64,000 nucleotides of DNA from Eledone cirrhosa (Eukaryota), in NCBI GenBank assembly GCA_964016885.1, contig OZ024741.1, forward strand, positions 286,812,001 to 286,876,000. Direction: 5' to 3'. Of this stretch, positions 10,284 through 27,450 are shown piece by piece. The notes below the pieces were generated by a model that did no database searches, was not told where the DNA came from, and saw only the letters and a program-made list of their open reading frames with translations. The position numbers were made by a program, and so were the translations under genes. Each line of letters opens with the position of its first letter. Position 1 is the stretch's first letter.

Positions 10284-11366
10284 AAATCATGTCCTTAGAA
10301 TTATTAGATAAAATATATACCATTTCCTCTCCCAATTAGCATAATTAACCATATAAAAAATCAATTAGACCATATTTGATAAATAACCGAAAGCGACCTC
10401 TTCGCGGTGACCCCAATAGAGTATTTACATGGTGTTGAAATGTTGGGTAAATACTCTATTGGGGTCACCGCAAAGAGGCCGCTTTCGGTTATTTATCAAA
10501 TATTTCTTCATAGGAGCCTTTATTCTTATAGCCTGGTCTAATTGATTTTTTATATGGTTAATTATGCTAATTGGGAGAGGAAATGGTATATATTTTATCT
10601 AATAATTCTAAGGTCATGATTTATGATATATTGCTCTGATTATTTAATTCATTAATTCTTCATTGAGCCACAACGTGACCGGTTGCCACATATATATCTG
10701 TGACTTTATGTATATGTAAATCTTTATATTTAATAATCTCCCGTTGGGTTGAGATGCAATTGGGCGATATTGGGCTGCACTTTCTAGCAATCAGCCTACT
10801 CGCCGTAAGCAACTAATCACATTCTTTCTAACTTGACCACTGCCACGTCACGATTCTTAGCCATTTTTTAATCTATTTTTGGCGCGATCGCTTTGGAAAA
10901 TTAACTGTCCGACTGAGTTTGTCTCCCGATGAGTCTGTTACTCTAGGTTCATCCTTAACAGTAGGATATCTAAAAATACGGACGAAACCATGGTAGAGAT
11001 GTAATTACGGCATGTACACGTTTCTTCTAAGTTTAAATTTACACCTAATTGTGTATGGTTGACGGTATATTTAGTCAGTTTCTACATGCTGTTGAAATGT
11101 TGGGTAAATACTCTATTGGGGTCACCGCGAAGAGGCCGCTTTCGGTTATTTATCAAATATTTCTTCATAGGAGCCTTTATTCTTATAGCCTGGTCTAATT
11201 GATTTTTTATATGGTTAATTATGCTAATTGGGAGAGGAAATGGTATATATTTTATCTAATAATTCTAAGGACATGATTTATGATATATTGCTCTGATTAT
11301 TTAATTTATTAATTCTTCATTGAGCCACAACGTGACCGGTTGCCACATATATATCTGTGACTTTAT
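10284..11366 (+). mobile_element. Non-coding hammerhead-bearing element: 5' inversion plus about 1.4 copies of a 657-bp monomer (family C)
   Basis: 10284-10427 is inverted against 10447-10622. Direct repeat starts at 10434 and 11091. TA tracts on both sides, no ORF. Confidence 0.85.
10921..11000 (+). ncRNA. Hammerhead (family C), core variant CCGAUGA
   Basis: GUCUC-CCGAUGA-GUCUGU...ACGGAC-GAAA-CCAUGG-UA^GAGAU. Confidence 0.7.
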
Positions 11367-11600
11367 ATATATATATATATATATATATATATATATATAT
11401 ATATATATGTGTGTGTGTGTGTGTGTGTGTGTGTGTTTATCCCGGGTTCAATCGGGGGTAACCACAGTAAGGTACTCAAAACATATAGAAGTATAAATAT
11501 TTAATATAGAAATGGCTTCTACAGGACTAGAGCTGTTTCTTTCGGGAGAAATCCTCATATATGTGTATATATATATATATATATATATATTTATATATAT

Positions 11601-12220
11601 GAAAAGGTTCAGGACCCCGACGGCAGAGTTCAAGCCGTTTCGATGGCTATTTCTGGACTAAATTAAATTTTTAGCGTGGTAATGAAATAGCTGAGCTTTT
11701 CAAGGGGTATATGGGCATGCGATAATGAGGTATTTCAAAAGGATTGGTCGAAATTTCTTGTAAACACAGTTAAATCTTTCATGGCGGTGGGTGGGTGGGG
11801 GGTGTTTTGAAATACCTGATTATCGCATGCTCATATATGGAATTACCCCTTGAAAAGCTCGGCTATTTCATTACCACGCTAAAAATTGAATTTAGTTCAG
11901 AAATAACCGTCGAAACGGCTTGAGCACTGCTGTCGGGGTCCTGAACCTTTTCCTATTACCCACTCTATTAGCCAAAGTATCAAGTACTCTGGTGCGTTAT
12001 GGTCCACCTGGTTCCTTACCACACTTCCTTCATTACCGTATAGCTCAGGAGTCGGTCCAGCGTACTGAGAGAAGATCTGGGCTTCGACGTAGCCAACAAA
12101 CAATTTGGCATAGTTTGGACCCATTCTGGTTCCCATCGCTACCCCAGAGAACTGTTGATAAAATTCACCCGAAAAATATAATCCATTGAGGGCGAGAACC
12201 AGCTCAACCAGACGGAGAGG
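11601..12220 (-). mobile_element. Penelope-like RT fragment joined to fold-back terminal repeat
   Basis: ELVLALNGLYFSGEFYQQFSGVAMGTRMGPNYAKLFVG (PLE RT) at about 12035-12220. Inverted arms at 11601-11740 and 11805-11952. Confidence 0.8.
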
Positions 12221-12462
12221 TCTGATCCACCGCCTTGGATCCGCTCCCCCTCTTGGACTCAACTCACCTTCCCAATTTCTCTAATACCTCGTCCATTATC
12301 ACACCCCTAGATTCTTATCGCTTTCTCTTGATCATTAGCAGATTCTCTTACAACTAATACATGCCGACTCTATATGCTCACTCCACTTTTCCCTTCACTG
12401 CTCTGTATACACACATACACACCCTTACATTAACATACTTTTGCTCATAGCTTCGTACTTAC

Positions 12463-13119
12463 ATGTATAACGGAATACTCCTATATTCTACCGGCGAAGA
12501 TTCGAAACCGAATCTGAACTTTCCCGCCTCTGGGACAATCTATCGTTGGAAGTTCTCGCCTTTGTCCTGTCAACGATGATAAATGTACATTCCATTTGAC
12601 CTGTGACCTCAACTCCTTGAGTGATGCTAACCACAGGTCAGACCATAGATCAACCTCATATATCCATCCTTCTTACTTTAGCACTTATTATAAATACAAG
12701 GACTTGGAGAACCAAAAGGGGAGAATCGAAGCAGCAGTCAAGAAGATAACTATGTAGCATCAGTAGACCTTTCATCCTATCTTTCTCTTGGCCCTTACTG
12801 GCTTACCTTCTCAGCCAGACAGCCAGCCATGCCTGCCTGACAGATTGACCATTACTACTATGAGAATAAGATAAACTAAGAATAGGCACACCCACACATA
12901 TAGTAAGTTCATGTTGTTATATTATACTCTCATCCTATTCTTCCTGCCTTATTGTATCTTCAAGACACAATACAACTCATACTATGTAGTCTTCTCTGAT
13001 ACATGGATTCCCGTTGGCCCGTAGAGCCAACAATTTAATGTAGCGACGGTTCATGTCATAAATGTTATTACTTAGTGTTCAAGTCGAATATTGTTATTAT
13101 AAAATAAACATTGTTAACA
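12463..13119 (+). mobile_element. Putative solo LTR
   Basis: TGT...ACA ends and AATAAA near the 3' end. A diverged inverted homologue lies at about 18782-19561. No TSD seen. Confidence 0.5.
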
Positions 13120-13308
13120 ACTCAATCATGGCATTATTCTTTTCATCCAAACACTCATCAAAACTAACACACAAACAATACCACTTATCACATGCACACA
13201 TACTCTTTTACTCATATATACGCACACATTTCTTCTTAGCTTCGTACGGACGTATAATAACACACACACACACCTCTTTTTACTAAACGTTTTTTTTTTT
13301 CATTTCAG

Positions 13309-25165: not shown

Positions 25166-25225
25166 TTTATTATAGTTTAGATTTCAAAGGTACAATGGTG
25201 TTTCAGTTCCTTTTCATCAGATAAA
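25166..25225 (-). ncRNA. Hammerhead (family H)
   Basis: UUUAU-CUGAUGA-AAAGG...CCUUU-GAAA-...-UA^AUAAA. Stem III is not palindromic. Confidence 0.6.
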
Positions 25226-25398
25226 ATATATGAGAGATTGGATATGCGAATGTCGCATATCCAATCTCTCGCTACGGTTTTGATTATTCAATTCTAGTAG
25301 TGGTTATATATATATATTCACTCTCATCCGGGAACAGTTTTGTATGGCGTCAGTTTGTGATTTAAACTCGGGAATTTTATATTCTCCGAGCGAGAAGA

Positions 25399-25480
25399 GC
25401 CTTCTGAAGAGAATCCCCTTCTCAATGGAAATCCGCTTGGATTATCCGTTTATTTTGGGACTTGAAACCGCGGTAAAGGC
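25399..25480 (+). ncRNA. Type I hammerhead (family G) with extended stem II, intact core
   Basis: GCCUU-CUGAAGA-GAAUCCC..AAUGGA-AAUCC(GCUU)GGAUU-A-UCCGUU..GGGACUU-GAAA-CCGCGG-UA^AAGGC. Confidence 0.85.
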
Positions 25481-25615
25481 ACATATAGTAAGTACAGAAA
25501 ATTTTTTTTTATTTATTTAAAAACTTTTTCTCTATTTGCTAGACCTGGATTATATATATATATATATATATATATATATATATATATATATATATATATA
25601 TATATATATCATAAC

Positions 25616-27450
25616 ATAAAACATGTCTATAGAATCACATGATAAAATATATACTATTTCCTCTCCCAATTAGCATAATTAACTATATAAAAAATCGAAT
25701 AGACCAGGCTATAAGAATGAGGCTTCTATGAAGAAATCTCCGACAAATAACCGAAACTAGCGCTTCGCGTCGGCCGTAGCGGGATATTTATCGAACATTT
25801 CGACAGCGTAATCGCCCAGATATAGTCAACTAAACAGAATTAGGTGTAAAATAAACTAGGAGAAAATAGAATACATTTAAATACCTCTACCATGGTTTCG
25901 TCCGTATTTTGAGTTTTCCAATAATTATGTAATAATTATATAAACTCGAGCGCCGGATTAATCAGGAAGCTCGCTCTTATCTAGACACTAAATTTTCCAA
26001 AGTGATCGCGCCAAGAATTCATTTCAAAATGGCTAAAAATCGTGACGTAGTCGCGGTCAGGTTGGAAGGGGTGTGGTAGTTGCTTACGACTGGTGGCATT
26101 TTTGCTAGAAAGCACAGCACAATACAGCCAAATTTGTATCTCAACCTAATGGGAGATTATTACATATAAAAGTTTACATATATATATACATACATATACA
26201 TATACGTGTTTTGCAACTGGTCACTTTGTGGCTCAATGAAAAATTAATAAATTAAACAATCAGAGCTATATATCATAAAACATGTCTATAGAATCACAAG
26301 ATAAAATATAAACTATTTCCTCTCCCAATTAGCATAATTAACTATATAAAAAATCGAATAGACCAGGCTATAAGAATGAGGCTTCTATGAAGAAATCTCC
26401 GACAAATAACCGAAACTAGCGCTTCGCGTCGGCCGTAGCGGAATATTTATCGAGTATTTCGACAGCGTAATCGCCCAGATATAGTCAACTAAACAGAATT
26501 AGGTGTAAAAATATTCCGCTACGGCCGACGCGAAGCGCTAGTTTCGGTTATTTGTCGGAGATTTCTTCATAGAAGCCTCATTCTTATAGCCTGGTCTATT
26601 TGATTTTTTATATAGTTAATTATGCTAATTGGGAGAGGAAATAGTATATATTTTATCTTGTGATTCTATAGACATGTTTTATGATATATAGCTCTGATTG
26701 TTTAATTTATTAATTTTTCATTGAGCCACAAAGTGACCAGTTGCAAAACACGTATATGTATATGTATGTAATATATATATGTAAACTTTTATATGTAATA
26801 ATCTCCCATTAGGTTGAGATACAAATTTGGCTCTATTGTGCTGTGCTTTCTAGCAAAAATGCCACAAGTCGTAAGCAACTACCACACCCTTCCAACCTGA
26901 CCGCGACTACGTCACGATTTTTAGCCATTTTGAAATGAATTTTTGGCGCGATCACTTTGGAAAATTTAGTGTCTAGATAAGAGCGAGCTTCCTGATGAAT
27001 CCGGCGCTCGAGTTTATATAATTATTACATAATTATTGGAAAACTCAAAATACGGACGAAACCATGGTAGAGGTATTTAAATGTATTCTATTTTCTCCTA
27101 GTTTATTTTACACCTAATTCTGTTTAGTTGACTGTATCTAGGCGATTACGCTGTCGAAATATTCGATAAATATTCCGCTACGGCCGACGCGAAGCGCTAG
27201 TTTCGGTTATTTGTCGGAGATTTCTTCATAGAAGCCTCATTCTTATAGCCTGGTCTATTCGATTTTTTATATAGTTAATTATGCTAATTGGGAGAGGAAA
27301 TAGTATATATTTTATCTTGTGATTCTATAGACATGTTTTATGATATATAGCTCTGATTGTTTAATTTATTAATTTTTCATTGAGCCACAAAGTGACCAGT
27401 TGCAAAACACGTATATGTATATGTATGTATATATATATGTAAACTTTTAT
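25616..27450. mobile_element. 1.8-kb palindrome of two head-to-head partial tandems of a 659-bp monomer (family C)
   Basis: Arms 25616-26446 and 26511-27341 are near-identical inverted copies. Internal period 659 (25616 and 26275). TA tracts on both sides. Confidence 0.92.
26987..27074 (+). ncRNA. Hammerhead (family C), intact core
   Basis: GCUUC-CUGAUGA-AUCCG..GAGUUU..AAACUC..CGGAC-GAAA-CCAUGG-UA^GAGGU. The mirror copy at 25883-25970(-) has CUGAUUA. Confidence 0.8.

Follow-up and report, generated by a model that had tools for sequence, protein, structure and literature searches.

The 64-kb window analyzed here (contig OZ024741.1 of the Eledone cirrhosa assembly GCA_964016885.1, forward-strand positions 286,812,001 to 286,876,000) contains two insertions of a non-coding, hammerhead-bearing repeat unit, hereafter copy A and copy B. 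In both copies an inverted arm is joined head to head with a direct arm, each running outward into (TA)n (Table 1). Direct reading of the two loci bore out much of an earlier description made without database searches (hereafter, the sequence-only reading), which had reported two insertions with periods of 657 and 659 bp, one hammerhead per monomer and no open reading frame (ORF): (TA)n lies on both sides of each copy, the longest stop-to-stop frames are 65 codons in copy A and 62 in copy B, and the inverted arm of copy B was found to carry a hammerhead of its own. The layout had been summarized as an inversion plus a 1.4-mer, which holds for both copies in that each has an inverted arm and a direct arm of ~1.4 units, but the inverted arm of copy B is itself longer than one unit. 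The arms are periodic and lack an internal domain, and a long terminal repeat (LTR) architecture is absent, although primer-binding sites and polypurine tracts were not searched for separately. The two copies are ~78% identical. Positions within the monomer are given as columns, with window position 26509 as column 1 and the predicted ribozyme cut after column 561.

Table 1 Features of copies A and B and of a related coding element in the window. PLE, Penelope-like element.
Feature	Position	Strand	Basis
(TA)n target, left flank of copy A	10230..10280	.	Repeat scan and sequence
Inverted arm of copy A, ~150 nt, 31 nt deleted; reaches outward to first 3' end (column ~182)	10281..10428	-	
Copy A direct arm, 1.4 units, period 657 bp, clade A	10429..~11368	+	
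Copy A hammerhead, type I: stem I GUCUC/GAGAU; CCGAUGA core (U4C); stem II GUCUG/CGGAC carrying a long insert; stem III of 2 bp with palindromic ACCAUGGU; cleavage predicted after 10995	10921..11000	+	Sequence, covariation
(TA)n target, right flank of copy A	11364..11408	.	
(TA)n target, left flank of copy B	25551..25609	.	
Inverted arm of copy B, 1.37 units (900 nt); reaches outward to first 3' end (column ~182)	25611..26510	-	
Hammerhead in copy B inverted arm: core CUGAUUA (G8U), predicted inactive	25883..25970	-	
Copy B direct arm, 947 nt (1.44 units), period 659 bp, subfamily B; ends at second 3' end (column ~288)	26509..27455	+	
Type I hammerhead of copy B direct arm: stem I GCUUC/GAGGU; core CUGAUGA; A.C closing stem II; predicted cleavage after 27069	26987..27074	+	
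Predicted long rod 3' of cleavage site, ~250 nt, kept across clades	27070..27340	+	Helices 87-99% paired over 20 representatives; few two-sided changes
(TA)n target, right flank of copy B	27449..27561	.	
Coding-PLE 3' fragment, Neptune/Nematis-type: GIY-YIG-like frame, minimal hammerhead near 36990-37040, inverted arm, tail, (TA)n both ends	35756..37197		

Copies A and B are two of several thousand copies of this element in the whole 3.0-Gb assembly of the same animal, to which all genome-wide counts refer. At least 2,580 junctions with (TA)n fall exactly at a first 3' end (column ~182) and 1,131 at a second (column ~288), compared with 0 and 4, respectively, for reversed controls, and a 19-nt hammerhead core has 1,172 exact matches, with none for the reversed pattern. 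Seventy-one full units resolve into two clades ~25% apart, mostly 655-672 nt long, and unit length across clades is 655-693 nt. A further subfamily, D (loci L341-L410; 124 exact matches), has a unit of ~680-693 nt whose stem III is 4 bp long, with length variants; stem I reads GUUUC/GAAAC, and stem II reads GUUCG/CGAAC. A subfamily D trimer lies at G000:C4:297235836-297237239. Only 8 of 232 arms hold two hammerheads in tandem, and 3 to 3.6-mers are also present. Tandem copies of this kind, as described for retrozymes, occur in the family and not in the two window copies; copies A and B, having one hammerhead per arm, could not set a monomer free, which would make them dead ends. At one of 92 junctions that we read, the insertion forms the end of a satellite array of ~45 units (29.6 kb; G000:C1:92985616-93016033, loci L185, L187, L188 and L202), which keeps the two fixed ends, an 816-bp inverted arm and the (TA)n frame and has grown by six-unit block (higher-order) duplications. 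Elsewhere, five subfamily B sites lie on one strand at a spacing of 1.76-2.63 kb (G000:C1:303203549-303212167), where the element may sit in a larger tandem repeat.

We identified the hammerheads by hand and by covariation. They are of type I, with a long insert in stem II and a stem III of 2 bp lying in the palindrome ACCAUGGU. Rfam called none over either copy, at gathering score or at E<=5, probably because of the long stem II insert. Among 19 sequences, 92.5% of stem cells were paired and seven pairs showed two-sided changes, a level reached in only 3 of 500 shuffles, while slid controls were 26-44% paired. All three hammerheads of the window deviate: copy A has U4C (present in 3 of 111 distinct hammerhead strings), the direct arm of copy B has an A.C pair closing stem II, and its inverted arm has G8U. 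Stem pairings had been described as kept between the copies; this is so for stem I (GUCUC/GAGAU versus GCUUC/GAGGU), but not for the stem II closing pair of copy B. The same column holds A in 48 of 49 subfamily B insertions, giving A.C instead of G-C, and from the conservation of G10.1-C11.1 in hammerheads described in the sections of PMC4209133 drawn on here, this mismatch would weaken cleavage. The ribozyme appears to be under selection, as indicated by the covarying stems, by position 7 as the only common core polymorphism and by the 4-bp stem III of subfamily D.

Insertion anatomy was read from junctions taken in genome order, 93 at the first end (92 parsed) and 63 at the second (59 parsed, the set including two duplicated pairs). 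The sequence-only reading had both copies ending in the same internal part of the monomer. There are instead two fixed 3' ends, 107 nt apart, one per arm; the right end of copy A lies ~17 nt short of the usual second end. Among first-end junctions, 42 of 92 had an inverted arm, which ended at column 287-292 in 35 of the 42 and at column 182 in one; among second-end junctions, 43 of 59 had an inverted partner, and 33 of these ended at 182. Because inverted copies pair the two fixed ends, one arm bears a 107-nt tail and the other has none, a one-sided tail of the type found in PLEs. The 5' ends, unlike these fixed 3' ends, fall at scattered points: direct arms have a median length of 320 nt (92 junctions), 23 of the 92 direct arms exceed one unit, all of them remaining periodic, and insertions range from 0.06 to 3.6 units. 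Past one unit the stop rate approximately doubles (56 stops versus 31 expected); we set this doubling aside as a diagnostic of the template because censoring, finite templates and later loss of whole units would give the same result. Copying of one arm from the other by fold-back was also rejected, since in copies such as B and L095 neither arm contains the other.

The far end is also TA-rich in 57 of the 92 first-end junctions; the junction searches themselves required (TA)n, and a hammerhead-anchored sample likewise ends mostly in (TA)n. A TA-like sequence of 5-7 nt is present at both start sites, and the start site, ~280 nt past the cut site, is UA-rich, in agreement with the earlier suggestion that insertion is primed by TA homology. 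In the parts of the literature consulted, PLEs are characterized by partial tandems, inverted 5'-truncated copies, one-sided tails and a microsatellite bias (PMC8557442), and their reverse transcription starts at two internal sites that delimit the tail, with both target strands extended (PMC11167929). The Eledone family shows these PLE traits of insertion: 5' truncation, partial tandems, an inverted 5' arm, a one-sided tail and a (TA)n target without a clear target-site duplication. With this anatomy, mobilization of the retrozyme family by a PLE is very probable.

We analyzed haplotypes in 50 subfamily B insertions, which remained from 52 entries after one duplicate and one outlier were dropped. 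Over the 52 entries, divergence was 1.9% within arms and 1.8% between arms, compared with 4.35% between insertions. In the 50 insertions, 264 variants were common to all units of an insertion, 25 were partial and 406 were single. At 27 diagnostic columns, discordance was 28/1,203 (2.3%) between rounds and 9/366 (2.5%) between arms, versus 42,774/116,458 (36.7%) between insertions. Variants specific to a unit position were not in excess (36 pairs versus 45.7 expected). Since the units and arms of an insertion share a haplotype, each insertion repeats the information of one monomer, and both arms derive from RNA of one haplotype. The cleavage junction was crossed without deletion (0 deletions in 86 crossings), no recurrent insertions appeared there among the junction strings listed, and no clear haplotype switch was seen at it, though several haplotypes coexist. 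The earlier view of the copies as retrozyme-like is supported in part, as a non-coding, hammerhead-bearing retroelement in which one monomer is copied more than once. Editing of template adenosines to inosine was considered as a source of variants and rejected, there being no A>G excess among the shared variants (A>G 34, T>C 42).

The positions of 5' ends carry a footprint of cleavage. Among 50 subfamily D copies sampled in genome order, seven have their 5' end at offset 0 or +1 relative to the cut, compared with 1.2 expected (one of the seven had been seen previously). Genome-wide, 5' ends exactly at the cut site number 25/366 in subfamily D, 20/1,142 in clade A and 1/486 in subfamily B (D versus A, P=8e-6; A versus B, P=0.008), counts that are lower bounds because the pattern catches only some flanks. 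Controls of the same context, placed 17 nt downstream of the cut, gave raw counts of 1 match in D and 7 in clade A. The footprint's order, D > A > B, follows predicted ribozyme strength: the closing pair of stem II is G-C in 13 of 15 D copies, where stem III is also longer, clade A has mixed pairs, and 40 of 50 B copies have A.C. Such 5' ends make it likely that the ribozyme cleaves its RNA in the germ line and that part of the templates is linear, and self-cleavage in vivo gains support from two subfamilies. Of six D copies with a start at the cut that were checked, five consist of a single first-round arm of ~300 nt. Most cDNAs, on the other hand, cross the site: 43 of 50 in subfamily D (at least 85%) and nearly all in subfamily B. 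Earlier footprint tests, which covered mostly subfamily B with patterns that missed one (TA)n phase, had been negative (3 stops versus 2.3 expected; 0 clean (TA)5 junctions versus 1, 0 and 4 for controls; and 1 in a further test), and library-based recall of the footprint gave P=0.06.

A coding PLE of the same genome is a candidate driver. Its 1,257-aa open frame (L121) has DKSG and YVDD motifs, a CX4CX2C linker plus, at its C terminus, a GIY-YIG-like region; a first look gave 22,451 candidates genome-wide, near-intact copies among them, and a 3' fragment lies in the window (Table 1). Pfam returned no significant family for this protein, and the Protein Data Bank only a weak GIY-YIG match (E=0.52); the Neptune/Nematis label comes from motifs described in the portion of PMC8557442 used, not from a tree. 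In its anatomy the coding PLE resembles the monomer, with a (TA)n target, an inverted arm and a tail of ~55 nt, and among nine loci with both arms visible, five pair the two ends, two are two-tailed and two are unclear. We also observed a second TA-targeting coding PLE family (L154, L147, L134 and L092), 50-65% identical to the first, with the first family's 3'-end motif, its own tail and a hammerhead-like motif. The sequence-only reading had held that it would fail if genomic copies were routinely attached to ORFs with reverse transcriptase and GIY-YIG domains as simple pseudo-LTRs (pLTRs); tblastn joined no such ORF to the monomer at 162 loci, nor was one found at 20 subfamily D loci. A short-stem-II hammerhead pattern gave 10 matches, all of which read like deletion variants of the monomer family, and a profile of 71 natural units did not find a parent PLE.

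We propose that the element is a non-LTR retrozyme that inserts into (TA)n through a PLE, probably copied from a circular monomer RNA, a combined reading that we regard as moderately probable. Given mobilization by a PLE, the genomic copies make a circular template a somewhat better than even prospect, because the active-looking ribozyme, scarless read-through and the one-monomer bottleneck are best joined by a scheme of cutting, ligating and rolling. In this scheme the few tandem copies with two hammerheads would be transcribed, and their ribozymes would excise one unit, as the 5' ends at the cut site suggest. A host ligase would seal the unit into a circle, a step suggested by the literature and by scarless read-through. 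A TA-targeting protein, presumably from a PLE, would then nick (TA)n, and reverse transcription would start at the UA-rich site, matching the fixed 3' end observed. In about half of insertions the other target strand would be primed at a second site, 107 nt beyond the first and on RNA that shares its haplotype; head-to-head joining of both cDNAs would then give the inverted arm and one-sided tail. Here anatomy and haplotype are observed and the chemistry is putative. Synthesis would halt at scattered points, often past one full turn, leaving the 0.06 to 3.6 units that we see, and a rare insertion may later expand into a satellite by unequal exchange, as the one 45-unit array shows. More tentatively, at a little short of even confidence, the family may be a circular-RNA parasite without sequence kinship to its driver, spread by rolling-circle target-primed reverse transcription in which a PLE dimer primes both target strands at two sites on one circle; subfamilies would tune ribozyme strength (4-bp stem III, 2-bp stem III, A.C mismatch), and the genome would record how often each circle was open when copied.

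Several observations weigh against the reading of a PLE-mobilized retrozyme copied from a circle. In published work, a PLE assayed in vitro used mainly uncleaved RNA as its substrate (PMC11167929), 8 of 9 frog retrozyme dimers did not cleave (10.64898/2026.07.22.740005), and multimers are made by non-autonomous Chlamys elements, whose clade mostly lacks hammerheads (PMC8557442). Within the Eledone family, subfamily B, the one in which the monomer bottleneck was measured, has spread with a ribozyme predicted to be weak, having the A.C mismatch and no cleavage footprint, and one 1,045-nt arm (L165) terminates precisely at the cut, a pattern that a linear multimer template explains better than a circle does. 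The 50 insertions of the haplotype set were picked by likeness to copy B and are biased toward long copies, within- and between-insertion divergence in subfamily D was 4.7% versus 4.3% (from few, partly duplicated loci), and gene conversion could also homogenize units. The closed monomer folds only slightly better than shuffled sequences (61-65% paired; z -1.1 to -2.3 versus 20 shuffles). The monomer has no detected similarity to the two coding PLE families, though other families may have been missed, and when a parent was sought with a distant endonuclease as query, all matches among the 30 loci read were relatives of the first family. Nor does the 1.4-mer by itself argue for a circle, as the sequence-only reading had supposed: partial tandems are a normal PLE product (PMC8557442, in the part covered).

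Part of this evidence would suit a PLE that copied a linear, mostly uncleaved tandem transcript, with the hammerhead trimming some 5' ends and with young sources or gene conversion keeping the units alike. The in vitro preference for uncleaved RNA (PMC11167929, as above), the weak-looking subfamily B ribozyme, the arm ending at the cut site, the raised stop rate that finite templates would give, and the long sources present (the 45-unit array and the 3 to 3.6-mers) all point that way. On such a template, however, a mutation in a single source unit should reach one daughter unit, whereas shared variants outnumber partial ones by 264 to 25 with no position-specific recurrence; the units of the long array are 5.3% apart, unlike the homogeneous dispersed multimers, and no subfamily B array longer than 3.6 units was present among the best 39 of 2,895 candidates. 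We therefore regard a linear tandem template as unlikely. A related possibility is a self-cleaved linear monomer on which reverse transcriptase jumps from the 5' end to the 3' end, making tandems without a covalent circle. Cleaved linear templates evidently are used, as the D copies that start at the cut and their single first-round arms indicate, and insertions of a single haplotype would equally result if the enzyme jumped back onto the molecule it had just copied. Yet template jumps usually leave scars, as known from R2, and the clean cleavage junctions bear no such marks; together with the large majority of D and B arms that run across the cut site, this makes jumping on a linear monomer decidedly improbable.

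The PLE-like anatomy could also mean that the copies are 5'-truncated pLTR remnants of an autonomous PLE family, whose rare parent could have been missed because the genome searches scored none but the top candidates. However, each of the 23 direct arms that exceed one unit continues periodically rather than into an ORF, no PLE ORF joins the monomer at the loci searched, and clades 25% apart keep their unit length within 655-693 nt, leaving this explanation with very little probability. Even less credible is a DNA-level repeat, either a satellite or a rolling-circle DNA element, with a hammerhead by chance. One array did expand by six-unit block duplications, but it too retains the frame of the two fixed ends, with an inverted arm and (TA)n, and 5' ends at an RNA cleavage site together with covarying stems need an RNA template, so that the footprint already contradicts a purely DNA-level origin.

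Returning to the reading of a PLE-mobilized retrozyme, the Eledone family has the non-coding unit, the type I hammerhead and, at family level, the tandems of a metazoan non-LTR retrozyme, and the properties of a non-autonomous PLE except similarity to a parent. As described in the parts of PMC7229834 and PMC7761336 that we used, the retrozymes of coral, mussel and axolotl share with it a non-coding unit with a type I hammerhead and a short stem III closed by a palindromic loop, a low G+C content, head-to-tail copies that can extend to long arrays, and PLEs in the same genome; the window copies and the covariation place a type I hammerhead in each unit here as well, with the A.C mismatch as a caveat for subfamily B. 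The invertebrate units studied there are ~170-400 nt, compared with 655-693 nt in Eledone, and circular RNA has been shown for those retrozymes, whereas for the Eledone family it is proposed. It also differs in its mostly dispersed partial copies in (TA)n, mapped start sites, inverted arms, tails and long stem II insert. Vertebrate non-LTR retrozymes have units of 51-972 bp, which span the size found here, with dispersed monomers, rarer multimers and a proposed PLE origin and mobilization; 24 of 57 frog families match known transposable elements, 21 of them PLEs, whereas we found no parent (10.64898/2026.07.22.740005). Insertion anatomy, start sites and the cleavage footprint, mapped here, are absent from that account as far as the part covered extends.

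Endonuclease-bearing PLEs of the Neptune/Nematis type and the Poseidon element PAc share with the Eledone family partial tandems, an inverted 5'-truncated arm, a two-start one-sided tail, a microsatellite target and a hammerhead upstream of the start sites, but the Eledone family has no ORF, a tail of 107 nt rather than their 30-40, and a canonical 2- to 4-bp stem III rather than their minimal type (PMC8557442, PMC11167929 and PMC4209133, in the sections drawn on). Non-autonomous Chlamys elements such as MRC1 are similar as non-autonomous PLE passengers with pLTR-like and multicopy head-to-tail insertions; unlike the Eledone family, they have 3' ends that as a rule match those of an autonomous family, and most of their clade lacks hammerheads (PMC8557442, same portion). 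The retrozyme class and the idea of a circle are thus already published: reverse transcription of circular RNA for more than one unit has been proposed (PMC4209133, PMC7229834), and a PLE origin of retrozymes has been argued (10.64898/2026.07.22.740005), again according to the sections consulted. The literature that we searched contained no description of the Eledone family or of such insertion-level evidence; Repbase, Dfam and supplements were outside the search, and the family may be catalogued there.

Other features of the window were noted in passing. A tRNA-like match at 44280-44352 (Rfam 39 bits, anticodon CTT) follows a (TA)n(GA)n run and may head a tRNA-derived short interspersed element, and a 38-bp minisatellite of 71 copies with 99% matches occupies 45007-47711. 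Short elements with long inverted ends and TA-run flanks (11597-11956 and 44439-44660), of which the window holds several copies, are possibly other non-autonomous head-to-head insertions. On the minus strand, broken frames at 499-1038 and 11897-12280, for which Pfam found nothing, resemble pieces of PLE reverse transcriptase by their motifs. Long minus-strand frames at 52975-56423 and 57437-58939, together with those at 3779-4673 and 41864-42364, are presumably, again by motif, long interspersed element reverse transcriptase and endonuclease (816 and 500 aa) and pieces of Tc1/mariner transposase.

Which enzyme moves animal retrozymes, and whether PLE-type tandems stem from circular RNA, are open questions in the field, where published arguments draw on co-occurrence, similarity to pLTRs and the finding of circles. 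To this the Eledone family adds thousands of insertions with mapped start sites, a rule of one site per arm, one haplotype each and 5' ends ordered by predicted ribozyme strength, as well as one case of a retrozyme insertion becoming a satellite. It also defines the RNA substrates exactly and yields predictions that an in vitro assay of a PLE could address, along the lines of the one in the consulted sections of PMC11167929. If the family is indeed a circular-RNA parasite of a PLE, its insertions would constitute genomic evidence for the circular template that was proposed for PLE tandems in 2014.

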